Shown piece after piece: positions 37,941 through 55,441 of a stretch of DNA of 64,000 nt. Within the stretch, counting starts at the first letter, position 1, and the number at the start of each line of letters is the position of its first letter. Source of the DNA: Planctomycetota bacterium (GTDB lineage: Bacteria; Planctomycetota; GCA-002687715); the NCBI GenBank assembly GCA_002687715.1, contig NZBC01000036.1, positions 4,322 through 68,321 of the forward strand, in the 5' to 3' direction. The notes under the pieces are model-generated. The model had not been told where the DNA came from. It worked only from the letters and a program-made list of their open reading frames with translations, and did no database searches. The position numbers were made by a program, and so were the translations under genes.

Positions 37941-38411
37941 TCACTTGTCCAGGCGGGTCGGCTGCAGGATCACCTTCTCGAACCAGATGCGTTCCACGCG
38001 CGCCTCCTCCCTGGGGAAGAGCTGCTCTTGCGTCATGGCGAGGAGACGTCGCTTCAGAGCGAGCTTGCCGTGGCGGGTGTCGAGGTCCTGGGCGGAGAAC
38101 TCGGGGAGGCGGGTGTGTATCGCGTCGGTGAGGTGGAGCTTGCGACCCGCGATGTGGCCGGCGGGGTCTTCGAGCTCCTTGCCGGCGCGGTAGCTGAAGA
38201 TGTACTCGAGGACGGGGTAGATCTCGGGGTCCCCGTTGAGGCGGAGCGAGACGGGGCCGATGTGGTTCTCGACCTGCTCTTCTTCGTAGTAGGCGTCGGA
38301 GCCGCGCATGCGCTCGGTGTGCTGCTGGCTCCACCCGGCGGGGCCGGAGGAGAGGGCGGCGATCGCCCCGAGGCCAAGCACCAGGCCCGTGATGATGAGC
38401 GCGAGCTTCAC
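37941..38411 (-). CDS. fliL: flagellar basal-body-associated protein FliL (paralog 1)
   Basis: 156 aa. GTG start overlaps the stop of the upstream fliL paralog. Single N-terminal TM (LALIITGLVLGLGAIAAL), then the FliL periplasmic domain pattern (Y......F..N...). Last gene of the flagellar operon. Confidence 0.65.
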   Translation of the reverse strand: MKLALIITGLVLGLGAIAALSSGPAGWSQQHTERMRGSDAYYEEEQVENHIGPVSLRLNGDPEIYPVLEYIFSYRAGKELEDPAGHIAGRKLHLTDAIHTRLPEFSAQDLDTRHGKLALKRRLLAMTQEQLFPREEARVERIWFEKVILQPTRLDK

Positions 38412-38872
38412 TGGATCTTGAAATCGCGGAAGAGGATGTCCTCGATCATCCCTTTCTGATCGGGGAAGACGACCTTCTGGATCAGCGCGCGCATCTCTTG
38501 CTTGAGGATCTCCTTCTGCTCTTTGGACTCGACGTCCTTCCTCTGCTTGGAGGAGATGAGCATGAGGAAACGGTCTTGGAGCTTCGCCGCCTTGGCGCTG
38601 AAGAGCCCCGGCGCTTCGGCGGGTTCGATCTCGGGCCCAACGCGGTACTCGGCGGTGGCGAGGATCTCGATGAACTCACCGTTCGTGCCGCGGAGGTTGG
38701 TCACGATCTTGGCCAGGTCAAACGCGAGCTCATCGCTCGTGTAGTACCCCTTCGTGCCCCGCTTCGAGGTGTCGATCGGCTCGGGCACCCCGGCCGACCC
38801 GACGATCATGAACGCGACACCGCCGAGCAGGAGAAGACCGCCCCCGCCACTGATGAAAACCTTCTTGTTCAT
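38408..38872 (-). CDS. fliL: flagellar basal-body-associated protein FliL (paralog 2)
   Basis: 154 aa. N-terminal TM (LLLLGGVAFMIVGSAGV), YYTSDELAFDL...NLRGTNGEFIEI FliL-like core. GGGGGAGGGG Shine-Dalgarno upstream. Confidence 0.65.
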   Translation of the reverse strand: MNKKVFISGGGGLLLLGGVAFMIVGSAGVPEPIDTSKRGTKGYYTSDELAFDLAKIVTNLRGTNGEFIEILATAEYRVGPEIEPAEAPGLFSAKAAKLQDRFLMLISSKQRKDVESKEQKEILKQEMRALIQKVVFPDQKGMIEDILFRDFKIQ

Positions 38873-38908
38873 CTACAACCCCTCCCCCGGCAATCAGGGT
38901 GCCCTGGG

Positions 38909-39619
38909 TCACGGCCCCACAGTGCTGATCAGTGCGATGCGGCGTCCCCACGAATCCTGACGCCACGAGGTCTCGCCCCCCCCGGTGGGGCCGTATCCGA
39001 TGGGAATGAACCTCTCGATGGGTATATCGCCCGCGGATGAGAGGTATCTGATGACATTGTCGGCACGTTGCATGGCCAGATGCCACGCTGCTTCCGTACC
39101 GAGACCTTCCTTCCACGCGAAACCTTCCACGCGGATTCGGATATCGGAATACCCCGTGAGCCAGGGGGCCATCGTGTCGAGGACCGCCCGGTGCGCGGTG
39201 GTCAGCGTCGAGGACCCCGGTGAGAACACGAGCGGCGCACCGATCTCGTTGGTCCCGGGTTTCTCCAGCGTGTCCATGACCACCTCACGCAGCGCGTCGC
39301 GATTGGCGTCCGTGATGCGGCCCGATTCGTCGACGAGCAGCTTGGAATTGATGCTCTTCGCCGGGCGGAACAGAACACGATCGGCGCCGAGGTCCATCGG
39401 CTTCTGATCGCTCTTCAAGACGCCTGGGAGGCCGTGCGACATGAGCGCCTCGCGGAACGACGACACGCCGTCGCTGATGAAGCCGGCGCGACGTTCGTCC
39501 GCGAACGCCTCGAGCAGGATGAAGAAGCAGAGCAGGTTCGTCATCATGTCCGAGAAGGACAGCATGTATAGAGGTGCGCCCGGTTCGTCCGCTTCTTCGA
39601 CCTTCTTCTTTTCGCTCAC
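38909..39619 (-). CDS. motB: flagellar motor stator protein MotB (paralog 2, OmpA-like C-terminal domain)
   Basis: 236 aa. TM helix with conserved Asp (LYMLSFSDMMTNLLCFFILL). C-terminal OmpA/MotB peptidoglycan-binding region. Confidence 0.75.
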   Translation of the reverse strand: MSEKKKVEEADEPGAPLYMLSFSDMMTNLLCFFILLEAFADERRAGFISDGVSSFREALMSHGLPGVLKSDQKPMDLGADRVLFRPAKSINSKLLVDESGRITDANRDALREVVMDTLEKPGTNEIGAPLVFSPGSSTLTTAHRAVLDTMAPWLTGYSDIRIRVEGFAWKEGLGTEAAWHLAMQRADNVIRYLSSAGDIPIERFIPIGYGPTGGGETSWRQDSWGRRIALISTVGP

Positions 39620-40362
39620 AGGTGCCCCTTCCCGTCGGGGTCCCAGATGACCTGGATCTCGATACGACGGTTCTTGCGGCGGCCGATCTCCGTTTCGTTA
39701 TCCGCGATCGGCACGGCCGCGCCGAGACCCGCGGCGCCGATGCGCCACGGTTCCCACGCCGTCTCCCTACCCAAGAACTTCGCCATCTCGAAAGCGCTCT
39801 TGCGCGTAAGGGTCAGTGCGTCTTGCCCGGGGACGAGGTCCGAGGTCTTGCTGTCAGTGTGAGCCTCGATGACGATGCGGACCGGCTCGTCCTTGAAGAA
39901 CCGCGCCACCTCGAGCAGCACGTCACGACCCGTCGACTTCAGCCGGGTCCCTCCGGGCAGGAAGAAGTGGCGCCCGTCCATGCGAATGCGATAGCCGTCC
40001 GGCATCTTCGAGAAGTCGACCTTCCGGTCGAAGACCGACGGATCCTGGATCGCCGTCGACATCCTCTCCTCGAGTTCCTGCCGCTTGGGGTGGCTCTCGG
40101 CGCCCTTCAAGTCGGTCTTCACGTTGCTCGGGACGTTGAGCTTGAACGGGGACTGTTTGCTCTTCTTCTGCTTCGGCGTCATCACGCCGAGCGAGCCCGT
40201 CAGGGCGCCGGTCACGCGGCGGAGCTTGTCGACGTCCACCGCAGAAAACGCGAACAGGAGAATGAAGAACGTCACCAGCAGAGAGATGAGGTCACCGAAC
40301 GTGACCACCCACATCGGGGCGAGGAGCTCCTTGTCTGCCGGGGCTGATTTTCGATTCGCCAT
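39616..40362 (-). CDS. motB: flagellar motor stator protein MotB (paralog 1)
   Basis: 248 aa. MWVVTFGDLISLLVTFFILLF TM with the proton-channel Asp. OmpA-like C-terminus (RIVIEAHTDS...NRRIEIQV). Confidence 0.8.
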   Translation of the reverse strand: MANRKSAPADKELLAPMWVVTFGDLISLLVTFFILLFAFSAVDVDKLRRVTGALTGSLGVMTPKQKKSKQSPFKLNVPSNVKTDLKGAESHPKRQELEERMSTAIQDPSVFDRKVDFSKMPDGYRIRMDGRHFFLPGGTRLKSTGRDVLLEVARFFKDEPVRIVIEAHTDSKTSDLVPGQDALTLTRKSAFEMAKFLGRETAWEPWRIGAAGLGAAVPIADNETEIGRRKNRRIEIQVIWDPDGKGHL

Positions 40363-40388
40363 CGTCCTGCGGTCGGGTCACCCCGTCC

Positions 40389-41162
40389 CTACTTCTTCGC
40401 GTCTTCGAGCTCGGCGCGCTCATTGGGAGAGATGTAGCTCTTCAGCTTCTCCTTGATCATCTGCGGCTTGTCCCCCGCCTGGATCGAGGCGATCCCCTCG
40501 ATCATGATCTCCCGCATGAGTGTCTCTTCCTTTTGACGCGCCTCCAGCTTCACCGCGAGCGGGATGAAGATCATGTTCGCCATGACCGCGCCGTAGAACG
40601 TCGTGATGAGCGCGACCGCCATACCACCACCAATCTGGCTCGGGTCGTCGAGGTTCTTGAGCATGGCGATGAGACCCATGAGGGTCCCGATCATGCCGAA
40701 CGACGGGGCCATCGTGCCCATCTGGTCCACGATCTTCTTGCCACTCAGGTGGCGGCCCTGCATGCCGAACAACTCGATGCCCATGATGTCCCGCACGGTC
40801 TGGGCAGGGAATCCGTCGACCACGAGACGCACGCCCTTGATGAGGAACGGGTCCTCGAGCTCCTTGATCTTCTCCTCGAGGGCGAGCAGGCCTTCGCGGC
40901 GTGCGACGTACGCGAAGTCCGCCATGCGCTCGATCTCTGCCTGCGGCGTGGGCAGCGGGTAGAGCACGGTCTTCTTGATGACCTTCATGACCCCGAGGAC
41001 CTTGCCCAGCGGGAAGGCCATCAGGGTGGCGGCGAGGGTTCCGCCCATCACGATGGCCATGCTTGGCACGTCGATGAACGACCCGACCCCCGCGCCACTG
41101 GACATGGACCAGATGACGAGGCCGAAGCCCAGCACGATGCCGATTAGGGTTGCGACGTCCAT
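40389..41162 (-). CDS. motA: flagellar motor stator protein MotA
   Basis: 257 aa. Four TM segments and the conserved MotA/TolQ/ExbB C-terminal region (GTLMGLIAMLKNL...ALITTFYGAVMANMIFIP). Confidence 0.85.
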   Translation of the reverse strand: MDVATLIGIVLGFGLVIWSMSSGAGVGSFIDVPSMAIVMGGTLAATLMAFPLGKVLGVMKVIKKTVLYPLPTPQAEIERMADFAYVARREGLLALEEKIKELEDPFLIKGVRLVVDGFPAQTVRDIMGIELFGMQGRHLSGKKIVDQMGTMAPSFGMIGTLMGLIAMLKNLDDPSQIGGGMAVALITTFYGAVMANMIFIPLAVKLEARQKEETLMREIMIEGIASIQAGDKPQMIKEKLKSYISPNERAELEDAKK

Positions 41163-41210: not shown

Positions 41211-42002
41211 TTAGAGCCCCGCCGTCGTGTTCTTCTCGGCGGTGATCGCCTGCATGCGCTTCGTCACCTGGACGGCCTGGTTGGGGTCCAATTCCTGCAG
41301 GATCTTGGCGGAATTCCGCTCGGACATCCCTTTGAGGATCTTCGCGACCGAGTCCACGTCCGGGGGAACCAGCTGCGCGGCCGGGTTCGCCGCGTCCGGG
41401 CTCTGCGCGTCCGGCTTCTCCCCCTCGATCATCCTCTTGAAGATGATGGCGGCCTTCTGCGGCGACATCTTCTCGAACGTCGCCCGGAGGATCTTCAAGT
41501 TCTTCTCCTCGCTCCGGAGGACGAGGACCTGCTGCTGATCGAGCTCTTCCCGACGGGCCTCGAGGGAGTACGCCTCTTTCTCGAGCTTCGCGCCGACGGT
41601 CTTCAAGTCCTCACGCCAGTTCTCGAGCTCGCGCCGCTCCGAATCCACCGCGTCCTTCTTCTTCTGCATGTCGAGGCGCTCCTGCTCGACCGCCGTTCGC
41701 CCGTCGGCCAGCTCGTGAGCCAGGGCCTCGAGCTCCTTGGCGGTCATGCCCGTGGGCAGGTCCCAAAGCTCCAAACTCTCGCGCAGCAACAGCTTCGACT
41801 TGAGATCCGCCGCATCGGCCTTGGAGAGCTCTTCCTCGCCCTCGGGTGGGAAGAAGAACCCGCCGACGACCGGCATCGCGTGCAGCGACTCCATCGTCTC
41901 GGCCGAGTTCTTGCCTTGGACGCGGATCAACACGTGAACGAGGCCGACGAAGATCAGCTGGGCCATGAACACGACCCCGAATACGCAAAACACCTTCTTC
42001 AT
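41211..42002 (-). CDS. YlxF/MotE-like flagellar protein with MgtE_N-type C-terminal domain
   Basis: 263 aa. N-terminal TM, long charged coiled-coil, C-terminal SVAKILKGMSERNSAKILQELDPNQAVQVTKRM resembling the MgtE_N domain found in B. subtilis YlxF and MotE. Position between fliJ and motA matches ylxF in fla operons. Confidence 0.45.
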   Translation of the reverse strand: MKKVFCVFGVVFMAQLIFVGLVHVLIRVQGKNSAETMESLHAMPVVGGFFFPPEGEEELSKADAADLKSKLLLRESLELWDLPTGMTAKELEALAHELADGRTAVEQERLDMQKKKDAVDSERRELENWREDLKTVGAKLEKEAYSLEARREELDQQQVLVLRSEEKNLKILRATFEKMSPQKAAIIFKRMIEGEKPDAQSPDAANPAAQLVPPDVDSVAKILKGMSERNSAKILQELDPNQAVQVTKRMQAITAEKNTTAGL

Positions 42003-42445
42003 GATTCCCTCCGATGAAGCACGGCCGCAACCTCGTCCATGAGGCGTTCTTCCTCGCGGCGTTCTTCCTCTCCGTGTTCTTCACGCGCCCGGTCTTCGAG
42101 GTGATCGAGCGCCTTGCGATCAGCCTGGCGTATGCGGGCCTCTTCACGCGCTACTTCGAATGCGTTCCTGGCCGTGGCGATCATCGTGATCGCCCGTTCG
42201 TCCGCGTCGTCCAACTGAGCGATCTCGTCGTGGTGCAGACCGATGAACGACAGATCGATCCGCCCGGTCGCGAGATGTCGCTCGAGGTCGTCGACCACGG
42301 CCTGCCTCTGGGTCCGGATGGCCTCGAGGTGCGCTTCGGCCTCGCGAAGCCCCTGCAGAGCTCGCGCCAGCGCGAGCAGCGCCTCCTTCTCCGCCGCGGC
42401 GCGGAGCTTCTGGACCTTAGCGAGCCGGAACTGGAACCGCCTCAT
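41999..42445 (-). CDS. fliJ: flagellar export protein FliJ
   Basis: 148-aa all-helical coiled-coil protein immediately after fliI, with ATGA overlap. Size and position are typical of FliJ. Confidence 0.65.
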   Translation of the reverse strand: MRRFQFRLAKVQKLRAAAEKEALLALARALQGLREAEAHLEAIRTQRQAVVDDLERHLATGRIDLSFIGLHHDEIAQLDDADERAITMIATARNAFEVAREEARIRQADRKALDHLEDRAREEHGEEERREEERLMDEVAAVLHRRES

Positions 42446-43764
42446 GACGCGGCCTTCCCGGCGACGTTGCCGAGTAGCGCGAGCGTCTCGGCCATGGTCC
42501 GCCCCTGGCCCGTGCGTTGAGCGAGAAGGGCCTCGAACTCCGTCTGCACAGCCAGCGCGCGATCGACCTTCGGGTCCGACCCTGGCTTGTATGCGCCGAC
42601 GGAAACGAGATCCCGGGCCTCCTCGTAGGCCGCCATCAGACTACGGACCTCGATCGCCGCCTCGCGGTGGACCTCCGAGGTGACGCGATCCATGATGCGA
42701 GACGTGCTCCGCAGAACGTCTACCGCGGGGAATCGTCCGCGCTGGGCAACGTCGCGAGAGAGCACGATGTGCCCGTCGAGCAGGCCCCGCATGGTGTCCG
42801 CGACGGGGTCGTTCATATCGTCGCCATCGACGAGCACGGTGAAGATACCGGTGATGCTCCCGGTCGGGGTGCGTCCCAGACGCTCGACTAGTTTCGGCAT
42901 CGATGAGAAGAACGATGGCGGGTAGCCCTTCACCGTCGGTGGCTCGCCGAGGGCGAGCCCGACCTCACGCGTGGCGCCGGCGAGTCGAGTGACCGAGTCC
43001 AGCATCATCATCACGTCGTGGCCCTGGTCACGAAACGACTCCGCGATGGCGGTCGCAGTGAGGCAGGCCTTGATACGGATGAGGGGAGGCGCGTCAGAGG
43101 TCGCGACCACAATGACGCTCTTCTTCAGCCCCTCTTCGCAGAGCGCCTCCTCGATGAAGTGACGGACCTCGCGGCCGCGCTCACCGATGAGCGCGATGAC
43201 GTTGACGTCCGCGAGTGTCGACCGGGCGACGTCTGCGAGCAACGTCGACTTGCCGACACCCGAACCCGAGAAGATGCCCATGCGCTGGCCGCGCCCGAGG
43301 GTGAGAAAGGCATCGATGACGGATACGCCGCTCGGCAGCGGCTCCTCGATCGGAACCCGCTCCATCGGCGTGGGCGCGGCGCGTTGCAGCGGGAACGTGC
43401 GGCCCGGCGGGATGGGAGGTCCGCCGTCGATTGCTCGCCCGAGTCCATCGACCACGCGTCCGAGCAGCGCGTCGCCGCCGCGAACCTCGAGGCGCGTACC
43501 CCGCGGAACCACGCTCGCCCCGGGGTGGAGGCCGTCCGCCTCCCCCAGCGGCATGACCAGCGTCGCGCCGCCCCGAAACCCCACGACCTCGACGTCCAGC
43601 TCGCTGCCATTGTCGAGTTCGACTCGGCAGAGGTCGCCCATCGCAGCCTGCAAGCCACGGCACTCGACGAGCAGTCCGACGACCTGGGTCAGGACGCCCG
43701 CGTGACGACCCATGGGCACGGCGCGGACGATGTGTTCCATGCGCGCTACGTCAGGCAGGACCAT
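42442..43764 (-). CDS. fliI: flagellum-specific ATP synthase FliI
   Basis: Start re-assigned to MVLPDVARMEH (ATG 43764-43762). Walker A GSGVGKST, Walker B VMMMLDSVTR, and full F1/T3SS-ATPase similarity. Confidence 0.9.
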   Translation of the reverse strand: MVLPDVARMEHIVRAVPMGRHAGVLTQVVGLLVECRGLQAAMGDLCRVELDNGSELDVEVVGFRGGATLVMPLGEADGLHPGASVVPRGTRLEVRGGDALLGRVVDGLGRAIDGGPPIPPGRTFPLQRAAPTPMERVPIEEPLPSGVSVIDAFLTLGRGQRMGIFSGSGVGKSTLLADVARSTLADVNVIALIGERGREVRHFIEEALCEEGLKKSVIVVATSDAPPLIRIKACLTATAIAESFRDQGHDVMMMLDSVTRLAGATREVGLALGEPPTVKGYPPSFFSSMPKLVERLGRTPTGSITGIFTVLVDGDDMNDPVADTMRGLLDGHIVLSRDVAQRGRFPAVDVLRSTSRIMDRVTSEVHREAAIEVRSLMAAYEEARDLVSVGAYKPGSDPKVDRALAVQTEFEALLAQRTGQGRTMAETLALLGNVAGKAAS

Positions 43765-44440
43765 GTTCTGCCTCCGAGAGCAGGCGCTCGCGCATCTGCT
43801 CGAGCCGCTCCGAGATGCCCGAGTACATCTCGGCGTCGCCGCCGGTAACCCGGAACGCACCCCTTGCGAACGTCGGGTCCGGCTTCAACGTGAGACCATC
43901 CTCGGTGAGGCTCTGAGGCAAGACCCCGAGGTCTTCAGGGTGTCCCGAGAGGGTCACGGGCTCGCCCGCGAGCTCGGGCAGGACGCTGTCGAGCACGCGC
44001 TTCACGAGTCCGCGGACGTCGTGCTGTTCCGCATCGACAACGCTCGCCGTCAGCTCTTCCGCGATGGTACACGCCAGACGCACCACGAATTCCGTGAGCT
44101 CCGAACGATCGTTCACCCGGGCCTGCGCGAGCCGATTCGCGGCGGAGCACATGGTGGCGGACGCGGCATCGACGGTCGCGGAGACCTCCGCCAACGCGTG
44201 CTCGCGGCCTCGCTCGAACGCCTTGCGCTGCACCGCCTTCAGATCAAGCGCCGGCAGGGCACGGTTCGCCGCCGGAGGTTTGGGTGCGCCGACGGGGTTG
44301 GCCTCCGGGGTATCCTCAGCATCCGCATCGGGAGCCCCGCCCTCGGGGGTCCGCGGTGTCGGAACGGAGGCCGCCCCGGGTTCGTCACGGCGGCGGACCG
44401 CGACCAGGCCGCGGGGCACGACGACCTGCCTACGCGACAT
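43751..44440 (-). CDS. fliH: flagellar assembly protein FliH
   Basis: 229 aa. Pro/Ala-rich N-terminus, central helical region, C-terminal FliH/ATP-synthase-b-like domain. Lies between fliG and fliI and overlaps both. Confidence 0.6.
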   Translation of the reverse strand: MSRRQVVVPRGLVAVRRRDEPGAASVPTPRTPEGGAPDADAEDTPEANPVGAPKPPAANRALPALDLKAVQRKAFERGREHALAEVSATVDAASATMCSAANRLAQARVNDRSELTEFVVRLACTIAEELTASVVDAEQHDVRGLVKRVLDSVLPELAGEPVTLSGHPEDLGVLPQSLTEDGLTLKPDPTFARGAFRVTGGDAEMYSGISERLEQMRERLLSEAEHGPA

Positions 44441-45458
44441 ACGCGCCGCCCTTGCCCTTGGAGACGGAGATCTCTCCCGAGTCCATCAGCTCGCGCACGA
44501 TGAGCAGGATCTGCTTCTGTGAGTCGAGCACCTCGCTCAGCGGCACCGCGCCGAGGAACTCACGTTCCTCGAGGATCATGTCACGCGTACGCTGCGACGT
44601 GGCCTGCAGGATCGAGTTCTGCACCTCCTCGTCGCACGCCTTGAGCGATAGCGCCAGTAGCTTGGTATCGATCCCCGCGAGGATCTTCTGCATGGTGCGC
44701 TTGTCGAGCAGCGAGAGGTCCGCCCAGGTGAACATCCGCTCGCGGATCTCCGTGCTGAGGGTCTCGTCGTCTTCCTCGACGCGCTTGAGGATCTCCTTGT
44801 CCACGCCGGGCTCGGTCGCGTTGAGAATGTCGGCGACCACACGGAAACGCGTGTCCGTCTCGTCCTCGGCGTCTTCCTCCTCGCGGCGCAATCCGCGCGT
44901 GCGTTCGATCATCGTCTGGGCAACTTGCTTCAGCATGCGCGCCGACGGCTCCTCCATGGTCGCCATGCGGGTCACGATGGCGGACCGCGCCTCCTCCGGG
45001 ATCTCCTCGAGGATGCTGGCAGCCTGCTCCGAATCCAGGTTCGCGAGCACGAGCGCCTGCAGCTGCGGGTGTTCGTCGCAGAGGACGCGCGCGAGATCCT
45101 GGGCGCGGATTCCTCGGAGGGCGCGGAACGGATACTGGCTCCGCGAGGCATCGCGGATCGTACTCAGACGCTCCTTGCCCTCCTCCGGCCCGTACAGGTT
45201 CTCCATCATTCCGGTCAGGGTCTTGCCCAGGTTCGACCGGAACACGACGCCGGACTGGAGCATCTCACGGAACTCGTCGATCACCCCGTTGATGACGCTC
45301 TCGTCGATGTCCGTTTCCTCGAGTTCGACCATCGCCTGACCGATACGGCCCTGCTCGTCGGTATCGAACTCCGCCATGACGGAGGACGCCGCCTCATCAC
45401 CGACGACGGCGAGCAGGACCGCGACCTTCTGGATTCCCTTGAGCTGGACGGGCGACAT
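44430..45458 (-). CDS. fliG: flagellar motor switch protein FliG
   Basis: 342 aa. Conserved FliG middle and C-terminal domains (...ILEEIPEE...IVTRM... / LSLKACDEEVQNSILQ), with the charged torque helix. Confidence 0.9.
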   Translation of the reverse strand: MSPVQLKGIQKVAVLLAVVGDEAASSVMAEFDTDEQGRIGQAMVELEETDIDESVINGVIDEFREMLQSGVVFRSNLGKTLTGMMENLYGPEEGKERLSTIRDASRSQYPFRALRGIRAQDLARVLCDEHPQLQALVLANLDSEQAASILEEIPEEARSAIVTRMATMEEPSARMLKQVAQTMIERTRGLRREEEDAEDETDTRFRVVADILNATEPGVDKEILKRVEEDDETLSTEIRERMFTWADLSLLDKRTMQKILAGIDTKLLALSLKACDEEVQNSILQATSQRTRDMILEEREFLGAVPLSEVLDSQKQILLIVRELMDSGEISVSKGKGGAYVA

Positions 45459-46951
45459 CAGCTGCTACTACCCGCGGGTTCGTACATCCAGTTGCGAAGG
45501 AGCTTGCCGACGGTCCCCACGTCCCGGTGGACCAGCTCCTTGAGCTCGTCCTTGGGGTCGGGGCGGACCTCGAGTTGCCGCCGCTCATCCGTTTCTTCCT
45601 CGGCGATGCGCGCGAGCGCGGAGCCGACGGTCTTCTTGGCCCGGCGGGCGGTCAGAGCGAGGTAGGCGACGAACGCCAGCCCGATCACCCCCGTGATCGA
45701 CCACTTGATGAGCTCCCAGGCGAATCCGGTCTCCCACATCGTCGGTTCGACGGGCGCGGCGGCGGCGATGGGCGCCGCGAAAGGCACGAACTGCACGCCT
45801 CCGAACGTGTCGCCCCGCGCGGAGCGATAACCGACGGCGCCCTTCACGATGCTCTCGATCGCCAGGGTGTGCACTTTCAGCGACTCGTCCGCCAGGACGC
45901 TGACCGCCAGGTTCTTGACCGCCCCGACTTCCTTGATGCGGACCTCCCTTTTCTTGCCGTGCGCATAGGTGATGTCCGTGTCTTCGGTCTTGGACCCGAC
46001 CTCCGAGCCCGCAGCCGTGCCGGCCTGCACTGCGCTCGTGCTCACCGTGCCCTTCCCCAGCGGTTTGGAGTTCTCGGTCGCACGGATCTTCTCCGTCTGG
46101 ACGACCTGCGAATCGGGGAGGAAACCATCGGTCTCGACCCGTACCTGCTCCATGTCGAGTTCCACGTTGCAGCGCACCACGACCTTGTCGCGGCCGAACA
46201 CACGCTCGAGTGCTTCCTCCGCGGCGCCCTGGAGGCGCATGCTGCGGGCCTGGGCAAGGCCGGCGGCGACGGCCACTGGACGGTCGGCGCCTTCCGGGCG
46301 GGCCAGGACCAGACCGCGCGTGTCCGTGACGACGACGCTCTCGGCATCGAGCTCCTTCACCGCGCCGGCGACGAAGCGGACGATCGACTCGACCTGGTGG
46401 GCCGAGATCAGGTGCCCGGGCGTCGGGTCGAGCATGACGGACGCCTTGGCGCCTTGGCTGCCCTCCTTGGTCCAGTGATGCTTGGCGGGCGTGATGTAGA
46501 CCGTTGCGTCCTCGATTCCCTCCTGACGCATGATCGCCATCTCGAGCTCGTCCTGGAGCGCGATCAGACGCTTGAACTCCTGCTGCGACTTGGTCGCCGT
46601 GATATCGAGTCCGAACGCCTTCGCGAACCCTTTGTCGGAGTCGTGCTGGAGCAGATCGTTCTGCACGACGATGGTCTGGACCTCGTTCCAACGATCGAAC
46701 GGGACCTCGATGGTCGAGCCGCCCTCGACGATCCGGTACGGCACGTCGGCATCGTCCAGTTTCGCGAGGACCTTCTGGGCCTCCTTGCGACTGAGCCCGC
46801 TCCCGAGCGTGCGCCACTGCGTGGAGCTGCCCGTGAAGATCGCAACGCAGGAGAACAGCACGATGAGCACGGCCGTCCCGAGGACCAACCCACGCTGGAC
46901 CCTGCTGAGCCGCTGCCAGACCTGCTTCACTTGTGTAACGAACGCGTTCAT
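45458..46951 (-). CDS. fliF: flagellar M-ring protein FliF
   Basis: 497 aa. N-terminal TM (LVLGTAVLIVLFSCVAIF), YscJ/FliF secretin-ring domain, and a second TM near the C-terminus (GVIGLAFVAYLAL). Confidence 0.9.
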   Translation of the reverse strand: MNAFVTQVKQVWQRLSRVQRGLVLGTAVLIVLFSCVAIFTGSSTQWRTLGSGLSRKEAQKVLAKLDDADVPYRIVEGGSTIEVPFDRWNEVQTIVVQNDLLQHDSDKGFAKAFGLDITATKSQQEFKRLIALQDELEMAIMRQEGIEDATVYITPAKHHWTKEGSQGAKASVMLDPTPGHLISAHQVESIVRFVAGAVKELDAESVVVTDTRGLVLARPEGADRPVAVAAGLAQARSMRLQGAAEEALERVFGRDKVVVRCNVELDMEQVRVETDGFLPDSQVVQTEKIRATENSKPLGKGTVSTSAVQAGTAAGSEVGSKTEDTDITYAHGKKREVRIKEVGAVKNLAVSVLADESLKVHTLAIESIVKGAVGYRSARGDTFGGVQFVPFAAPIAAAAPVEPTMWETGFAWELIKWSITGVIGLAFVAYLALTARRAKKTVGSALARIAEEETDERRQLEVRPDPKDELKELVHRDVGTVGKLLRNWMYEPAGSSS

Positions 46952-46964
46952 GCCTCAACCTCGA

Positions 46965-47273
46965 TCAGACCTGAATCCGCATCACTTCCTGGTACGCATC
47001 GACGAGCTTGTTCCGGACTTCGAGCATCATCCGGAAGCTCACATCCGCCCGGTTCATCGCGATCATCACGTCATGCACATCGTCGATCTTGCCGGAGGCG
47101 AAATCGTCGAGCTTCTGGTGCGAAGCCTTGTGCATCTCGTCCGCTTGCTCGAGGAGACCCTCGAGCACCTTGCTGAAGCCCTCGCCGTCGCCCGACTTGT
47201 CCTGCTCTTGTGGCTGCAGCCGCGCCATGTCTTCCGCGATGCGCATCGCGTTCACGTCAATGGGCATGCTCAT
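46965..47273 (-). CDS. fliE: flagellar hook-basal body complex protein FliE
   Basis: 102 aa. C-terminal FliE signature (DVHDVMIAMNRADVSFRMMLEVRNKLVDAYQEVMRIQV). Confidence 0.8.
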   Translation of the reverse strand: MSMPIDVNAMRIAEDMARLQPQEQDKSGDGEGFSKVLEGLLEQADEMHKASHQKLDDFASGKIDDVHDVMIAMNRADVSFRMMLEVRNKLVDAYQEVMRIQV

Positions 47274-47276
47274 GGG

Positions 47277-47690
47277 TTACCTCGCGAGTTCCAGAGCCTG
47301 CTCGGCCATGCGGACCGACATCTGGGCTGCCTGCAGATTCGCCTCGTACGCCCGCGCCGCCGTCATGAGGTCCACCATCTCGAATGTCGGGTTGATGTTC
47401 GGCATCTTCACCATGCCACTGCTGTCAGCGTGGCGATGCCCGGGCTGGTACTTCTCGAGATGCGGCGTCTTGGTGTCGTCGACGATCTCGGCGACCCGCA
47501 CTCCCCCGCGCATCTCACCGTCGAGGACGGTCTCGAATACGGCGAGCTGACGTTTGTAGGGCGTGCCGTCGCCGCGGTTCGTATCGTGAGCGTGCGCGAG
47601 ATTCGTCGCGATCAGGCCCATGCGAACCCGCTCGGCAAGCAAGCCGCTGGCGCTGATCGACAGTCCGCGAAGTACGTTGTTGAGGTCCAT
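47277..47690 (-). CDS. flgC: flagellar basal-body rod protein FlgC
   Basis: 137 aa. N-terminal rod motif (ISASGLLAERVRMGLIATNLAHAHD) and C-terminal VDLMTAARAYEANLQAAQ. Confidence 0.85.
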   Translation of the reverse strand: MDLNNVLRGLSISASGLLAERVRMGLIATNLAHAHDTNRGDGTPYKRQLAVFETVLDGEMRGGVRVAEIVDDTKTPHLEKYQPGHRHADSSGMVKMPNINPTFEMVDLMTAARAYEANLQAAQMSVRMAEQALELAR

Positions 47691-47735
47691 CTCTCTCTCA
47701 ATCTGAGGCCGTGGTGAGCCTCGAGCTGACCATGA

Positions 47736-48055
47736 CTACTGGCTACGACCCGCGATGGCCGCGCGAGTGGTCCGCGTTTCGGAGGCCATGGCCTGCAGGA
47801 ACAGGCGGTACACGAGCGCGTTCTTGCGCATCTCCGCGTTCTCGATCTCGAGCACGACAGTGTTGCCGTCCTGGCGCGGGTTGATCCCCTGCCTTTCTTC
47901 CATGACGGCGGACTCCAGCGCTTCGTCGAACCGCAAGGTCTTCGCCTTGAAGCCCGGCGTGTTCAGGTTCGCGAGATTGCGTTGGATCACTCGATGCTGC
48001 TCAGACGTGAAGTCCAGCGCAGCGAGGATCTTCGAACTCTGTGGTCCTAGTGGGC

Positions 48056-48059
<4 letters not shown>
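47736..48059 (-). CDS. flgB: flagellar basal-body rod protein FlgB
   Basis: Start re-assigned to MSPLGPQSSKILAALDFTSEQHRVIQRNLANLNTPGFKAK (ATG 48059-48057, ATGA overlap with the response-regulator stop). 107 aa. Confidence 0.8.
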
Positions 48060-49422
<1,363 letters not shown>

Positions 49423-49426
<4 letters not shown>

Positions 49427-50700
49427 GACGTTACTCCAGGCGAACGGATCGGTAGCACGACCGTCAACCGCGCGCCTCCAATCGGGGCGGTCTCAGCGAT
49501 GATGGAGCCGCCATGGAGCTCGACGAACTTGCGGGAGAGCGCGAGTCCCAGTCCGGTGCCTTCGGCCTTCGTGGTCGTGAACGGCCGGAAGAGGCGCCCG
49601 CGCAGGTCGGTCGGGATGCCCGGTCCATCATCGTCCACGGTGATGCGAAGACGGTTGCCCTCGCGACGTGCGCCGATCATCACTCGCCCGTCTTCTCCGG
49701 TCGCCTCCATGCCGTTGCGGACGAGGTTCCCCAGCGCCAGCTTCAGCTTGAGACGATCGCACTCGATCTCGGTCCCGCTGGTGTGGTCAACCACCTCCAC
49801 CGCGGCCCGCGGCATTCCCGTCGGCTCCTCGGCGGCGGCCGCGACCTCACCGAGCAGGGCGCTCACAGTCACGGGGTCCATCCGCGCGCGCTCGGGCCGT
49901 GCCCACAGCAGCAGGTTGGAGATGATCCCGTTGACCTCCGCCACACCCTTGCGAATGCGGTCGGCGTAGCGCAGCAGTTGTGACTTCGAGGCGGCCTCGA
50001 TGCCCTCGAGACTCTCCCCCTCACCCCGCAGGGCCTTGGCGAGCAGCCCCGCGAATCCCTCGACCCCGTTCATCGGGTTGCGAATCTCGTGCGCAACGCC
50101 CGCGGCCATCTCTCCGAGCTCGGCCAGCGTGTCGAGACGCGTGACCTGTGAGCGCAGATGCGCGACCTCGGTCTGATCCGACAGGATCTCGAGGCGTCCG
50201 CCATCAGGGAGGTCCGCGACGGACCCAGACAGAAAGCGCTCTGATCCGTCCAGGCAACAGACGAGCCGTTCCACGACGGTTCCCGACCGGACCTCGCTCC
50301 TCCCAAGCAGCAGGATCGAGGTACCGCGATGATCGAGCAGCGTGCGCGCGTCACGACCGCTGACCTCGTGCGACGGACGTCCGATGATCCGCTCGGCTGC
50401 AGGGTTCAGCCGCGTGATCGTGCCCTCTCCGTCACACGCCACGACCCCGCAGGGGATCGCGTCGAGGATGCCGTTCAGCTCCCCCGTGACGCTCTTGAGC
50501 TCTGAGACCTTGTTCAGCAGCCGTCCGTTGGCCGCGGACAAGCGACCATCCACGCCGGCGGCGCGGTCCTCGAGCCGCGAGTACGCGCGCTCGAGACTGC
50601 GGGTCACCTGGTTGAACACCCGGAAGCTCTCTTGGAGATTCGTCGCTTCGTTCACCGGCATTGTCGGGCCGACCTCTCGTTCTGGTGCCACGCCGTTCAT
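49423..50700 (-). CDS. PAS-domain sensor histidine kinase (FleS/FlgS-like)
   Basis: Start at ATG 50700-50698 (MNGVAPE), ATGA overlap with the upstream TPR gene. Alternative start MPVNE at 50661. PAS (ILDAIPCGVVACDGEGTI), HisKA H-box (AAGVAHEIRNPMN) and HATPase_c (GTGLGLALSRKFVELHGG). Confidence 0.85.
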
Positions 50701-51530
50701 GTGGTTCCCTTTCCCCCCGCGAGCAGCTTGCGGATGCGTTCTCTCTGCTTGCCGAGGTCGAGGCTCCACTTCGCCTGGTTGCCCCAGTGCCCCTGCGGGT
50801 CGTCGCCCTGGGTCGCGACGTAGAGTTCCTCGGCTTCCTTCCACCGCCCGAGCTTGTCGTGGCAGCGAGCCATGCGGAACGTGATTTCGGCTGTGCGCTC
50901 CTTCGCCAACACCCGCTGGAACGCCTTGAGCGCGCCCGCGTAGTCCTCGGCGAAATACAGCGCCTTCGCGAGCGCGACCTTGTCAACGGCATCAGCGATG
51001 CGTTCTTCAGACCCGACCCCCGACTTCGGCGGCTCGGGGACTTCGAGTGCCACGTCGAGCGCGGCGGCGCCGAAACGGGTCGGACGGCGCACCTTCGCGA
51101 TCTCTCCCCGAGAACGCTCGTTGGCGAGGCGAGTCCGACGCGCCCGGAGAAGGCGCTCCTTGGCCTGCAGCTCCGCGACCTGGGTTTCCTCCTGCTTCAA
51201 GGACGACTCGGAGGCGCCAGCGTCGAGCCGCTGTTTCAAGACCTCGGGCATGTCGACGATGATGCCGCGCTCCAGCGCCGACTGCAGATTCTCGAGGTGA
51301 CGGATCTCCTCTTCGGTCTCGGCAAGACGCGCCTCCATCACCTTGACCTTCGACTTGTCCGCGGACTTCAGCATGACGCCGATGTCCCCGAAGATCTCCT
51401 GCAACGTCGGAGGCGATTCCTGGTTGCCCCCCAACTCGTCCAGGATGTTCCAGATGGCGCCTCCGGGTCGCTGGGCAGGCGCGGTCGCCGCCAGGATTCC
51501 CGTCAGCATCATCATTGCCGCACGTCTCAT
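50697..51530 (-). CDS. secreted coiled-coil/TPR-like protein (candidate flagellar accessory protein)
   Basis: Start re-assigned to MRRAAMMMLTGILAATAPAQ (signal peptide, GGAGGAAG Shine-Dalgarno). 277 aa with a long coiled coil and a C-terminal TPR-like region. Embedded in the flagellar operon. Confidence 0.5.
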   Translation of the reverse strand: MRRAAMMMLTGILAATAPAQRPGGAIWNILDELGGNQESPPTLQEIFGDIGVMLKSADKSKVKVMEARLAETEEEIRHLENLQSALERGIIVDMPEVLKQRLDAGASESSLKQEETQVAELQAKERLLRARRTRLANERSRGEIAKVRRPTRFGAAALDVALEVPEPPKSGVGSEERIADAVDKVALAKALYFAEDYAGALKAFQRVLAKERTAEITFRMARCHDKLGRWKEAEELYVATQGDDPQGHWGNQAKWSLDLGKQRERIRKLLAGGKGTT

Positions 51531-53107
51531 CCGTCTTCCTCCGGTGCCTGGCCGGACTTCCCGTCGTCCGGGGTCTTCCCCGCGTCCGTTGTCTTGTTGC
51601 GTCGGGTGCCAAACGCAAGCGCCGCCTTCGCGTAGTCGCCGAGCTGCATGTAGCAGCGACCGCGCAGCCGCGCTATCTCGTCGTGATCCACGCCGTCCGC
51701 TGCAGCCGGGATCTTCTCGAGCAGGGTGATCGCCTCGCGATTGCGCCCAAGGCCGATCTCGCAGCGCGCGAGCAGGACCGTGGCCCATGGCATCCGGTCC
51801 GGCCGTAGCGCGAGGTGGCGATAGATCTCCCGCGCCTCGTCGAATGCGTGACGCGCGAACAGGATGGACGCGGTCTCGCGCAAGATGTGGAACTCCACGC
51901 CGGTGAGGTCACCCGCACCGCACGCGACCGCGGCCTGGTCATACGCCTCCATGGCGCGTTGGCCGAGGCCGAGCTGAGTGTAGATCTCCGCCTGCATGAG
52001 ACGCGCCTCCACGAGATGCCGTCCGGTCGGCTTCTCGTTCAGCGCGATCTGTACGTTCTGAAGTGCCGCGATCCGGCGCTTGAGGTGGATACACGCCTGC
52101 GCAAGCGCGAGCGCAGCGCGGACGCGCACAACCCGGTCGGGTGTGAGCAGGCAGCGCTGCAATCGGGACAGGGCGCGCTCGTGCGCGCCCTCGAGCATCA
52201 GGCACATTCCTTCGAACAGTGGCGCCAACGCTCCGAGGTCCTCGAACTCCCGGCGCATGTCGATCGTGAATCCCTCGAGCGCATCGCTGGCCTGCTTGCC
52301 CTTGCCCTGGACATACCAGAACTCGGCATGCACGAGGCTCCCCAGCGCACGCAGGCGACTGGACGGCGCTTTCCTCATGACCCGCGCGAGGATGGGTGGC
52401 ACGGGCGACCACTCCTTGCGCTTCATGAAGAGACGGACCTGGAGCAGCCACGCCTCCATGACCTCGTTGCTGCCGTCGTACTGCTGGATGATCCGCTGCA
52501 GGTACGATTCTCCTCGCGGCTCGTCGCCCGACCGAAGCAGACACGAGGCGGCAAGCAACAGCGCTCGAGGCGCGCGTTCGTCATCTTTCGCCACCGTCGC
52601 GAACCGCTCGAAGTGGCCCACGGCCTTGCCATACTCGTTGGCGGCGAGGTGGAGCAGTCCGATCTTCCACAAGTGCTCGGGGTCACCTTTCAACGACGCA
52701 TTGCGGCGCGCAGCCAGCGCACCCAGACGGGCCCACTCCTTTGCTTCGTCGCTGCCTTCCGCCGGCTCCGGCCGCACGACGATGTGTCCGTCCTCGACGC
52801 GCCCTTCGAGTCCGACCGCGCCCGCCAGATGCGACACCAGGTCGGCAAGCGGCATCTCCACGACCTGCACGGGAACGACCTGACCCTCCATGATCACGGG
52901 CGAGCCAGGCAGGAATCGGAGCTCGACGTCGAGCCGCGCTCCAAGCTGCACCAGGACCTCGCGAATCGGCGTCGCGCGGGTCAGCAGGTCGATGAGGATG
53001 ACGCGACCCCTGCGGTGAATCGTGATGTCGAGAACGGGAGTCTGTGCCGGTGCTTCCGGCAACGCAGAGACGAACACGATGATCCCGATCAAGGCGCGTC
53101 TCACCAT
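51527..53107 (-). CDS. secreted TPR-repeat protein (candidate periplasmic flagellar scaffold, PflA/PflB-like)
   Basis: Start re-assigned to MVRRALIGIIVFVSALPEAPAQTP (signal peptide). 526 aa with multiple TPR-like helical repeats. Overlapping starts and stops with neighbours in the flagellar operon. Confidence 0.55.
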   Translation of the reverse strand: MVRRALIGIIVFVSALPEAPAQTPVLDITIHRRGRVILIDLLTRATPIREVLVQLGARLDVELRFLPGSPVIMEGQVVPVQVVEMPLADLVSHLAGAVGLEGRVEDGHIVVRPEPAEGSDEAKEWARLGALAARRNASLKGDPEHLWKIGLLHLAANEYGKAVGHFERFATVAKDDERAPRALLLAASCLLRSGDEPRGESYLQRIIQQYDGSNEVMEAWLLQVRLFMKRKEWSPVPPILARVMRKAPSSRLRALGSLVHAEFWYVQGKGKQASDALEGFTIDMRREFEDLGALAPLFEGMCLMLEGAHERALSRLQRCLLTPDRVVRVRAALALAQACIHLKRRIAALQNVQIALNEKPTGRHLVEARLMQAEIYTQLGLGQRAMEAYDQAAVACGAGDLTGVEFHILRETASILFARHAFDEAREIYRHLALRPDRMPWATVLLARCEIGLGRNREAITLLEKIPAAADGVDHDEIARLRGRCYMQLGDYAKAALAFGTRRNKTTDAGKTPDDGKSGQAPEEDG

Positions 53108-53862
53108 CCGGCTCCCTGGAAGAGCACCGGCTCCGGCAACGCGTCGAGCGCGCGACCGTTCAGCTGGGTCTGAAACTCGACCTCGAAGCTCTGAGCGAGG
53201 CGGCGCTGCGCCTCCAGAACGAGCTCCGGTTCGGGAGCGTCCATCTGACCTCCACCGAGAGCGATGAGGTGAAGACGACGACGCGCGGCCCGGGCCCGGC
53301 CGGCCTGGAGGTCCTCTGCCGCCAGATCGAAGATCGCGAGTCCCTTGTCGGACAGACCGCTGAGGTGCTTCGCCACCTGGTCGCGGTACAGGGCGGCCGC
53401 GGACATCTGACCGAGGTGGTGGCACGCTTTGGCCATGGCGCGGCACAGATCGGCTCGCAGCCGACGCTGTCGCGGCTCCGCGGCGATGAGTCCGTCGCCG
53501 AGGAGACGCTGCGCCTCGCTGAAGCGGCCGTCTTCCATGGCTGCCCGCCCCAGGTCGAGGTACTCGGACGCCCCCAGATTCGTCGGCGCGGCCGGTTTCG
53601 GCTCCGTCGGCGTGACGACTTCGGGCTGCGTCGAGGCCGGCCCCGGCTCAGGCTCTGCGTCGGTCAGAGAGGAGCCAAGCCCGACCCAGAGGAGGACAGC
53701 GGTCGCCGTGCCCGCGCCGATGAGGATCCACTCGTTCCTCAGGAACGCGACGACGGCGGCGATCTTCGTGAGCTCCGACGACGACGCGACGTCCGCCTCG
53801 GCAGCGTCCGCACCGGCATCCGCCTGCTCCGTCTGGCGCTTGGTCAGAGTGTCTTGGGTCAT
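53101..53862 (-). CDS. membrane-anchored hypothetical protein with TPR-like C-terminal domain (first gene of sigma54 flagellar operon)
   Basis: ATG 53862-53860 (MTQDTLTKR). The track start is a TTG 18 nt upstream. Single TM (WILIGAGTATAVLLWVGLG), Pro-rich linker, helical C-terminus. Confidence 0.45.
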   Translation of the reverse strand: MTQDTLTKRQTEQADAGADAAEADVASSSELTKIAAVVAFLRNEWILIGAGTATAVLLWVGLGSSLTDAEPEPGPASTQPEVVTPTEPKPAAPTNLGASEYLDLGRAAMEDGRFSEAQRLLGDGLIAAEPRQRRLRADLCRAMAKACHHLGQMSAAALYRDQVAKHLSGLSDKGLAIFDLAAEDLQAGRARAARRRLHLIALGGGQMDAPEPELVLEAQRRLAQSFEVEFQTQLNGRALDALPEPVLFQGAGW

Positions 53863-53913: not shown

Positions 53914-53928
53914 GCAAGGCCCGTGCCC
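53914..53928 (-). promoter_or_regulatory. sigma54 (RpoN) promoter, -24/-12: GGGCAC-N5-TTGCG
   Basis: The minus strand reads cGGGCACgggccTTGCg with exact GG-N10-GC spacing of the TGGCAC-N5-TTGC consensus. It lies 35-50 nt upstream of the operon's first start codon and is flanked upstream by an intrinsic terminator. Confidence 0.55.
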
Positions 53929-53962: not shown

Positions 53963-53990
53963 TGAAAAGAGGACCCGTTCGGGTCCTCTT
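53963..53990 (-). terminator. intrinsic terminator of the upstream sigma54-activator gene (AAGAGGACCC-GAAC-GGGTCCTCTT + UUUU)
   Basis: Perfect 10-bp inverted repeat. On the minus strand it is followed by TTTTCAGT, 45 nt after the stop at 54035. Confidence 0.6.

Positions 53991-54034: not shown

Positions 54035-55441
<1,407 letters not shown>

Follow-up and report, generated by a model that had tools for sequence, protein, structure and literature searches.

What role do three genes of no assignable family play at the head of a flagellar operon? The window analysed here, a 64-kb stretch of DNA from an uncultured member of the Planctomycetota, holds three adjacent genes, termed P1, P2 and P3, ahead of a long string of regulatory, rotor, export and stator genes. 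An earlier note on this DNA had proposed that their products may be lineage-specific components of the flagellar motor, possibly resembling the PflA/PflB scaffold. Accessory scaffolds of this kind are already known in other bacteria; for the Planctomycetota motor, we found in the literature no cryo-ET study, in situ structure or named accessory part. On balance, P1, P2 and P3 are probably Planctomycetota-specific periplasmic components of the basal body, co-expressed from a single sigma54-dependent operon with the proteins of the MS-ring, rotor, export apparatus and stator.

Promoter, gene junctions and operon content

The three open reading frames are present at the coordinates given in the earlier note (Table 1), and an independent gene caller run on the source metagenome contig returned identical lengths. 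The GC content by codon position (GC3 0.82-0.84, GC2 0.45-0.51) is like that of the neighbouring flagellar genes, and many synonymous codon changes separate the trio from homologues at 40-55% identity. The overlap is ATGGTGA at the P1/P2 junction and ATGA at the P2/P3 junction, as had been claimed. The further overlap between P3 and the kinase gene, also ATGA, holds only if the kinase starts at MNGVAPE; the gene caller places this start 36 nt further downstream, and relatives have the 4-nt overlap. Such start/stop overlaps imply co-translation and matched amounts of the trio proteins.

Table 1. Features of the locus in the 64-kb window, listed in the direction of transcription
Feature	Position	Strand	Remarks
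REC-sigma54 activator-HTH gene	54035..55441	-	FleQ/FlrA-like, candidate master activator
Terminator-like hairpin	53965..53990	-	GC-rich, with T run; ends the upstream sigma54-activator gene; read from sequence
Sigma54-type -24/-12 promoter	53914..53927	-	GGCAC-N5-TTGC; motif GGCACGGGCCTTGC
P1	53101..53862	-	253 aa; single-pass membrane protein
P1 TM helix	53665-53730	-	residues 45-66
P2	51527..53107	-	526 aa; signal peptide (residues 1-21), N0/STN-fold domain, TPR superhelix, disordered tail
P2 N0/STN-fold domain	52769-53035	-	residues 25-113
P2 TPR superhelix	51608-52750	-	residues 120-500
P3	50697..51530	-	277 aa; signal peptide, helical region, C-terminal TPR
P3 C-terminal TPR pair	50781-50978	-	residues ~185-250
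PAS-HisKA-HATPase kinase	49423..50700	-	cytoplasmic, FleS/FlrB-like; start overlaps P3 stop codon (ATGA)
REC-sigma54 activator-HTH response regulator	48056..49426	-	FleR/FlrC-like
flgB, flgC, fliE, fliF, fliG, fliH, fliI, fliJ	42442..48059	-	fliJ reaches 41999
FlgY/FlbB/MotE-like gene	41211..42002	-	263 aa; N-terminal TM helix, long helix, weak MgtE_N/ARM-like head
motA, motB-1, motB-2, fliL-1, fliL-2	37941..41162	-	stator and stator-associated; end of gene string

The clean sigma54 promoter reported ahead of the operon was recovered; from the 5' end of its motif to the start codon of P1 is 65 nt. In its strict form, this motif occurs only twice in the 64 kb, against 0.5 occurrences expected by chance, and in nine of ten loci the P1 homologue is preceded, at a distance of 52-99 nt, by a motif of this type. 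A terminator-like hairpin precedes the promoter, which indicates that transcription begins anew with the trio; hairpins like it can be seen in three related loci (L001-L003). The FleQ/FlrA-like activator gene is kept upstream of the trio in L003, L010 and L014-L016.

Downstream of the trio lie the genes for a two-component pair, the kinase of which has no membrane span that we could find in its sequence, and the flgB-fliJ string then runs on from the regulator gene without large gaps. Directly after fliJ comes the gene for the FlgY-like protein, which has a TM span within residues 1-30 and only weak profile matches (MgtE_N, 19.8 bits against a cut-off of 25.9; FliG_M, 18 bits over residues 215-254); its orthologue in locus L019 also matches MgtE_N weakly. 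This protein is expected to be the operon's E-ring protein. Members of the FlgY/FlbB/MotE family are known partners of TPR spokes in other phyla (PMC13023049), and the FlgY-type protein of Campylobacterota, Spirochaetota and alpha-proteobacteria is partnered by periplasmic TPR proteins on which stator retention depends (PMC13023049, PMC12222027, PMC11870540). The gene string ends with motB and fliL each present in two copies, as the earlier note had stated.

Architecture of the three proteins

A periplasmic or membrane-anchored placement is predicted from sequence for all three proteins, and this prediction is well supported. In P1, residues 1-44 form a cytoplasmic tail that is acidic and poorly conserved. 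The one hydrophobic span of the protein, a TM helix kept in homologues, comes next; a Pro-rich linker then leads to a helical periplasmic domain (residues ~97-253), which is conserved and gives a weak TPR signal that stays below threshold in both Pfam and NCBIfam. Among homologues, the tail is of low complexity, ranges from ~45 to more than 200 aa and is essentially unconserved.

By a heuristic reading, the hydrophobic segment ending in APAQ with which P2 starts is a signal peptide, making P2 a secreted protein with no TM anchor; its homologues have signal-peptide-like segments as well. A confident 3D model shows a domain of secretin-N0/STN fold, which superposes structurally with N0/STN domains, followed by a TPR superhelix of ~20 helices, or ~10 hairpins. 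The Pfam scan returned no STN or Secretin_N match for P2 at E <= 1, and whole-protein fold searches retrieved only generic TPR proteins. The N0/STN fold is found in secretins, in DotD/VirB7 and in TonB-dependent transducers, where it mediates periplasmic protein-protein or ring contacts, and the TPR is an all-purpose interaction module.

P3 opens with a signal peptide in which the AQR cleavage region is conserved, and its homologues keep a signal-peptide-like N-terminal segment. A charged helical region (residues ~40-150), coiled-coil-like by composition only, precedes a conserved PEPP linker and the C-terminal TPR pair; the linker and an HWG motif are the conserved marks of the P3 family. Since the Pfam and NCBIfam matches of P2 and P3 were all of the generic TPR kind, and the TPR matches of P1 stayed below threshold, the description of the trio as lacking an assignable family is correct.

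Conservation and alternative explanations

The order P1-P2-P3 was found in 13 Planctomycetota loci, with P2 identity to the window ranging from 48% down to ~20%, and all nine trio loci of sufficient length run on into flgB-flgC-fliE-fliF. Orthologues in non-flagellar contexts, the check set beforehand, were found in none of the loci examined. As the homologues were recovered from metagenomes and MAGs, the gene content is what indicates that their hosts are flagellated. Because the trio is attached to the flagellar operon in all distant relatives examined, its proteins are most likely lineage-specific parts of a periplasmic motor scaffold. Restriction to one lineage, uncultured Planctomycetota, is well supported and, together with the exclusive linkage to the flgB-fliL operon across deep divergence, bears out part of what had been claimed; we infer membership of the motor itself, as well as the binding partners and any effect on the stators.

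Two variants of the locus are informative. One separate lineage carries P1 and P2 fused in-frame into one protein of 940-1006 aa, the N-terminal half of which matches the P1 HMM (E 7e-10 to 8e-8) and the C-terminal half the P2 profile; this fusion argues for binding between P1 and P2 and for an inner-membrane tether on P2. Locus L019 lacks the kinase and regulator genes, and there the trio stands directly before flgB...fliJ-FlgY-motA-motB-motB-fliL, which indicates that the trio is independent of the two-component system and tracks the structural genes.

An assembly or regulatory role would fit operon membership as well. The trio might act transiently, as a factor for periplasmic assembly or an adaptor in cell-wall remodelling, and not as a permanent part of the motor, helping the rod, hook or rings to cross the peptidoglycan or chaperoning the periplasmic domains of MotB and FlgY, on the model of TPR adaptors such as CpoB/YbgF, LpoA, BamD and the PilF/PilW pilotins. 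We consider this unlikely: these resemblances consist of generic TPR matches below the family thresholds, the Pfam and NCBIfam scans detected no peptidoglycan-binding or enzymatic domain in the trio, and translational coupling together with a membrane-anchored, 1000-aa P1-P2 fusion is more typical of a stable structural complex than of a passing helper. A periplasmic sensing module is harder still to accept. Such a module would report envelope or assembly status to the FleS-like kinase in the manner of FecA-FecR, passing from the STN domain of P2 to single-pass P1, the cytoplasmic tail of which would contact the kinase. However, the trio of L019 is retained upstream of flgB without kinase or regulator in the operon, the acidic, low-complexity tail of variable length is unlike a specific signalling domain, and structural ring components, secretins, DotD and VirB7 among them, show the N0/STN fold just as typically.

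Membrane-anchored TPR proteins are known to organize cell poles, and this general precedent and the flagellar operon context are the only support for a polar landmark or placement factor that sets flagellar site or number, comparable with TPR-containing HubP/FimV or TipN-type organizers. That role is very improbable, as known placement factors act from the cytoplasmic side or have large cytoplasmic or peptidoglycan-binding domains, whereas the conserved parts of the trio are all periplasmic, and no LysM or FimV-type domain was detected in it with Pfam or NCBIfam. The idea that three unrelated envelope TPR genes came together in the operon by chance, planctomycete genomes being rich in TPR proteins (at least two others lie in the window, at 2549-4651 and 25312-26883), is effectively refuted by the conservation of order, promoter and flagellar context where P2 identity is only 20-27%.

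Likenesses to known scaffolds and a proposed arrangement

The best reading, by analogy, is that the trio would form an inner-membrane-anchored periplasmic motor scaffold working like PflA/PflB, MotC/MotK or FlcA/B. For PflA/PflB, the resemblance claimed earlier stands as a functional and architectural analogy and fails as a sequence relationship and as an AMIN-like fold. Neither the NCBIfam scan nor sequence comparison detected homology of the trio to PflA, PflB, FlcA, MotC or MotK. Like P2, PflA is a secreted periplasmic protein in which a small N-terminal globular domain precedes a long TPR superhelix, and it occurs in genomes that also encode a FlgY-type E-ring protein; the N-terminal part of PflA is involved in its pairing with a membrane-anchored partner (PMC12222027, PMC11870540). 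PflA, however, has an AMIN-like beta-sandwich and ~16 TPRs and is encoded outside the flgB operon, whereas the P2 gene lies inside it; P2 has a TPR superhelix too, though a shorter one. P2 was rejected as a PflA proper, its N-terminal domain being N0/STN and not the PflB-binding AMIN-like beta-sandwich, with no sequence or profile similarity. Like P1, PflB is a periplasmic helical-repeat protein with an N-terminal membrane anchor, and it binds a secreted TPR partner, as P1 would; with regard to the transmembrane criterion for PflB, P1 has its one TM span. PflB, though, is ~820 aa long and has many TPRs, and an antiparallel beta pair defines it (PMC11870540). With a periplasmic domain of ~150 aa and sub-threshold TPR matches, P1 cannot be a TPR array of PflB size.

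A survey by Feng et al. 2025 (PMC11870540) treated TPR proteins of flagellar clusters, planctomycete ones included, as potential PflA homologues, the criterion being a multi-TPR protein within five genes of a flagellar cluster and a FlgY homologue in the genome. By that definition P2 and P3 are such candidates, lying inside the flgB operon with a FlgY/FlbB-like gene after fliJ.

MotC of Sinorhizobium meliloti and MotK of Cereibacter sphaeroides, periplasmic TPR partners of MotE, also resemble the trio: genetic and physical ties connect both to stator function and the FlgY/MotE protein (PMC13023049). MotK, like P2, combines an N-terminal non-TPR domain with TPRs (PMC13023049), but that domain is a peptidoglycan-binding AMIN. 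MotC and MotK are single proteins, in contrast to the three-gene module, and neither appears in the NCBIfam results for the trio. In Borrelia burgdorferi, FlcA and FlcB form with FlbB an inner-membrane-anchored periplasmic collar, in which TPR proteins sit on TM-anchored FlbB; the FlgY-like protein of the window shares the N-terminal TM helix of FlbB, and without the collar stators and FliL are not retained (PMC13023049). The Borrelia collar genes, however, do not cluster but lie scattered in the genome, and the flagella of spirochaetes are periplasmic. The only flagellar family matched by P2 in NCBIfam was FlcA_CTERM (NF047371), but this assignment was discarded, with 17.6 bits against a cut-off of 300 (E = 0.001) over one generic TPR stretch of 70 residues.

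As parts of a motor scaffold, P1 would sit in the inner membrane and hold P2 via its periplasmic helical domain, the long superhelix of P2 would serve as a spoke or arc to which the N0/STN-fold domain is added, and P3 would be a helical stalk, probably dimeric, bearing a small TPR head. The three may surround the MS-ring and the FlgY-type E-ring with a collar or spoke network close to the inner membrane, which would position or retain MotA/MotB/FliL stator units, as the scaffolds above do elsewhere. The trio, the FlgY-like protein, two MotB and two FliL make a concrete candidate parts list for the Planctomycetota motor, and the trio adds a data point for E-ring-plus-TPR-spoke scaffolds being ancient and widespread (PMC11870540, PMC13023049). 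It also suggests that the non-TPR 'adaptor' domain on TPR spokes can vary, N0/STN in P2 against AMIN elsewhere, which bears on whether such scaffolds share a common ancestry or were assembled repeatedly from envelope-machine modules.

The fold of P2 residues 25-113 is common to GspD, PilQ, EscC, FecA and DotD/VirB7, although in P2 it is joined to a TPR superhelix and not to a secretin or a TonB-dependent barrel. N0 domains oligomerize in secretins, as does DotD in the Dot/Icm core. Possibly, although we think it rather unlikely, the N0 domains of P2 close into a periplasmic ring from which the TPR spokes reach the P1 anchors and heteromeric MotB-1/MotB-2 stators. If so, a ring module derived from secretins would underlie the Planctomycetota flagellar collar. 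Flagellar motors would then, for a second and independent time, have recruited modules also known from the N-terminus of PilQ-type secretins, in parallel to the AMIN of PflA and the PilQ-N1 of PflD in Campylobacterota.

The Pfl proteins have been speculated to derive from TPR components of the Tol-Pal system (Drobnic et al., PMC12222027), and P3 is similar to CpoB/YbgF in size and in its order of signal peptide, helical oligomerization region and C-terminal TPR. As a CpoB/YbgF, P3 was nevertheless rejected, scoring 14 bits with TIGR02795 against a cut-off of 90.1; the same profile gave 48.5 bits on P2. CpoB/YbgF belongs to a tol-pal context, whereas P3 is distinguished by its PEPP linker, HWG motif and flagellar context.

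The P1-P2-P3 genes and their promoter

The three minus-strand open reading frames that the earlier note had proposed at 50697-53862, P1, P2 and P3, which open the flagellar flgB-fliL operon, were borne out exactly when the frames were read, and an independent gene caller gave the same three products on NODE_1430959, the 74.6-kb metagenome contig in ENA that contains the window. Their codon-position GC contents (GC3 0.82–0.84, GC2 0.45–0.51) are those of fliF and the regulator gene, and conserved residues show many synonymous codon differences relative to a homologue at 40–50% identity. Given the reading frames, the independent calls, the codon-position GC and the synonymous differences, the three genes are genuine. 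P1 and P2 overlap in ATGGTGA and P2 and P3 in ATGA, while the stop of P3 overlaps, again in ATGA, the ATG that opens the kinase frame at MNGVAPE; the genes that follow are read in the same direction and are closely spaced or overlap (table). The public gene prediction starts the kinase 36 nt downstream of this ATG, at MPVNEAT (412 aa), and this start is probably mis-called; the upstream ATG gives 425 aa and agrees with the 4-nt overlaps present in relatives.

The element GGCACGGGCCTTGC, whose 5' end lies 65 nt before the start codon of P1, is by its sequence a textbook sigma54 -24/-12 element. It is preceded by a GC-rich hairpin with a T run at the end of the upstream sigma54-activator gene. 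The 64-kb window contains two matches to the strict GGCAC-N5-TTGC motif versus 0.5 expected by chance, and GGCAC/GGCAT-N5-TTGC was found 52–99 nt upstream of the P1 homologue in nine of the ten loci inspected. At L017, a locus of lower GC in which P1 and P2 are fused, the strict motif was not found upstream. The other exact match in the window falls within a 36-nt gap between motB-2 and fliL-1, only about 18 nt from the fliL-1 ATG, and could either serve as a sigma54 promoter inside the operon or have arisen by chance.

Features of the flagellar cluster in the window
Feature	Position	Strand	Remark
P1	53862..53101	minus	253 aa
P2	53107..51527	minus	526 aa
P3	51530..50697	minus	277 aa
GGCACGGGCCTTGC	53914-53927		upstream of P1
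REC-sigma54-activator-HTH	54035-55441	minus	upstream of trio
flagellin, fliD, fliS, fliT, small rod-family protein, GT2 glycosyltransferase		divergent	upstream of trio
Flg_bb_rod-motif protein	59134-59457	plus	104-107 aa, after fliS/fliT
GT2 glycosyltransferase	59486-61132	plus	548 aa
PAS-HisKA-HATPase kinase	49423-50700	minus	cytoplasmic, downstream of P3
REC-sigma54-activator-HTH regulator	48056-49426	minus	after kinase
flgB, flgC, fliE, fliF, fliG, fliH, fliI, fliJ		minus	after regulator
FlgY-type protein	41211-42002	minus	263 aa, directly after fliJ
motA		minus	after FlgY-type gene
motB paralogues	39616-40362, 38909-39619	minus	overlapping; each plug + OmpA domain
GGCAC-N5-TTGC	38890-38903	minus	between motB-2 and fliL-1
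fliL paralogues	38408-38872, 37941-38411	minus	tandem

Relatives and natural variants of the trio

In Pfam and NCBIfam, P2 and P3 matched nothing but generic tetratricopeptide repeat (TPR) models and P1 reached TPR below threshold only, in line with the earlier note, which had found no assignable family. Searching PDB sequences with P2 and P3 profiles likewise returned generic TPR matches and nothing more specific. P1 starts with an unconserved acidic cytoplasmic tail, has one transmembrane (TM) helix (residues 45–66) and, after a Pro-rich linker, ends in a conserved helical domain of roughly 150 aa. In P3, a signal peptide is followed by a charged helical region that is coiled-coil-like by composition and, beyond a conserved PEPP linker, by a pair of TPRs at the C-terminus. 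For each of the three proteins, the predicted place of action is the periplasm, at the inner membrane.

A word-indexed homology search with P2 recovered only three proteins, and a 32-sequence profile mostly generic TPR proteins. The family was revealed when an HMM from a P2 alignment was run exhaustively against 1.8 billion representative proteins, a search that detected about 35 full-length, single-stretch relatives of 450–590 aa, together with a set of proteins of about 1000 aa matching in their C-terminal half only. Wherever the source named the organism, the P2 relatives came from Planctomycetota MAGs. They are annotated as 'hypothetical' or 'TPR repeat protein'; their cluster labels name no cultured organism, and one of these labels, 'negative regulator of RcsB', is evidently spurious.

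Genomic context was compared at 12 loci beyond the window (L001, L002, L003, L006, L010, L011 and L014–L019), among which P2 identity to the window protein drops to about 20%. The P1-like, P2-like, P3-like order was constant in all 12, and every sufficiently long locus runs on into flgB-flgC-fliE-fliF-fliG-fliH-fliI-fliJ. On contigs reaching upstream (L003, L010, L014–L016), a sigma54 activator gene precedes the trio, followed outwards in L010 and L014–L016 by a flagellin/fliD operon. The locus search with a five-sequence alignment gave one true locus, L011; L012 and L013, which were generic TPR matches, were left out.

In the L017 lineage, a single 950-aa protein (P0036, L017 2430-5282) stands in place of P1 and P2. 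Its acidic cytoplasmic part leads into a TM helix, a periplasmic domain of the P1 type and a complete P2 that lacks a signal peptide; the next genes encode an enlarged P3 (402 aa) and the kinase. The P1 HMM matched the N-terminal halves of three fusion proteins with E-values of 7e-10 to 8e-8. The existence of P1::P2 fusions speaks for the two proteins working as a complex and for retention of P2 at the inner membrane. The fusions (P0036, P0037, P0043, P0110, P0164 and P0165) measure 940–1015 aa and have a long acidic, disordered cytoplasmic N-terminus of about 190–250 aa.

L019 carries the weakest full-length P2 relative in an operon with neither kinase nor regulator. There, the genes for a TM-TPR protein (253 aa), a P2-like protein (555 aa) and a P3-like protein (193 aa; P3 HMM E = 7e-12) immediately precede flgB...fliJ-FlgY-motA-motB-motB-fliL, and the trio therefore tracks the structural genes rather than the two-component system. 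The same locus encodes a 395-aa PilZ-domain protein between flgE and flgF (3032-4219, minus) and two small lipoprotein-like ORFs between fliK and the trio (7781-9005, minus; 187 aa, coiled-coil rich, and 228 aa), which may be additional lineage-specific flagellar accessories.

A putative periplasmic scaffold of the motor

A single conserved sigma54 promoter appears to drive the trio together with the genes for the MS-ring, the rotor, the export apparatus, the FlgY-type protein, the stators and FliL, and the three trio proteins appear to be made in matched amounts. In other phyla, FlgY/FlbB/MotE proteins form an E-ring around the MS-ring, and their partners are periplasmic TPR proteins, namely PflA/PflB in Campylobacterota, FlcA and FlcB in Borrelia, and MotC and MotK in alpha-proteobacteria, which form spokes or collars that hold the stators in place (PMC13023049; PMC12222027; PMC11870540).

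A role of the trio in flagellar biogenesis or operation is highly probable. The more specific reading towards which we lean, because it is the most economical, sees P1-P2-P3 as what planctomycetes have in place of these E-ring-partner scaffolds. P1 would be the membrane anchor, P2 a TPR spoke whose N0 domain would bind protein or form a ring, and P3 a TPR adaptor on a stalk. That the N0 domains make a secretin-like ring in the motor seems unlikely to us. It is rather doubtful that the trio instead acts transiently as an adaptor for assembly or peptidoglycan remodelling. That it is a sensor of the FecA/FecR style with output to the kinase is improbable, considering that L019 keeps the trio without kinase and regulator and that the cytoplasmic tail of P1 is unconserved. 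A polar placement factor is very improbable, and mere hitch-hiking genes scarcely credible.

The earlier note had called the trio PflA/PflB-like. For the scaffold reading, this likeness holds in architecture and context and fails as family membership: PflA has an AMIN-like beta-sandwich, whereas P2 has an N0/STN domain instead; P1 is far smaller than PflB; and no sequence homology to PflA/PflB was detected by the NCBIfam scan or by profiles against PDB sequences. The trio is thus not a member of the PflA or PflB families. The NCBIfam models FlcA_CTERM and YbgF scored far under their cut-offs on the trio proteins. Feng et al. use 'potential PflA homolog' in a loose operational sense, for a multi-TPR protein at most five genes from a flagellar cluster where the genome also encodes FlgY, and in that sense the trio qualifies (PMC11870540). 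Their Supplementary Table 5 lists flagellar-cluster TPR proteins of cultured Planctomycetota, including those of Phycisphaera mikurensis (493, 196 and 254 aa) and Pirellulimonas nuda (791, 991 and 342 aa) (PMC11870540), whose lengths resemble an L019-type trio and the fused form; these proteins, among them WP_014435528.1 and WP_014435530.1 of P. mikurensis and WP_145282887.1 and WP_145282885.1 of P. nuda, are candidate orthologues. The general idea is already in the literature, and roughly half of flagellated species are expected to have proteins of this sort; what is new here is the three-gene module with its strict placement as the first genes of the flgB operon, its conserved sigma54 promoter, the P1::P2 fusion, and an N0/STN domain where AMIN would stand.

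Other components of the cluster

The FlgY-type gene was left unannotated by gene callers. Its product, with an N-terminal TM helix, a long charged helix and a C-terminal head weakly MgtE_N/FliG_M-like (MgtE_N 19.8 bits versus a cut-off of 25.9; a weak match also occurs in the L019 orthologue), looks like an FlbB-type, TM-anchored FlgY/MotE E-ring protein.

The duplicated MotB and FliL reported earlier at the end of the operon are both present. A single motA precedes the motB pair, and at the distant L019 a MotB-like gene (20795-21556) also follows motB, so the duplication is old; the two motB could provide heteromeric MotB dimers or two stator types with one MotA. The genes of two REC-sigma54-activator-HTH proteins, one FleQ-like and one FleR-like in arrangement, flank those of the trio and the kinase; the upstream activator differs from Pseudomonas FleQ in having a recognisable receiver domain (69.5 bits).

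Since the flagellar cluster in the window spans 37941-59457 only, hook, L/P-ring and export-gate genes must be located elsewhere. The remaining genes of the window have no relation to the cluster (DUF1570, sulfatase, NamZ, amidohydrolase and others); planctomycete genomes commonly carry DUF1570 and sulfatase genes. The adjacent Flg_bb_rod-motif gene, with the motif at the N-terminus of its product, and GT2 gene are kept as a pair in L015, where the GT2 orthologue has TPR matches, and this pairing hints at flagellin or rod glycosylation.
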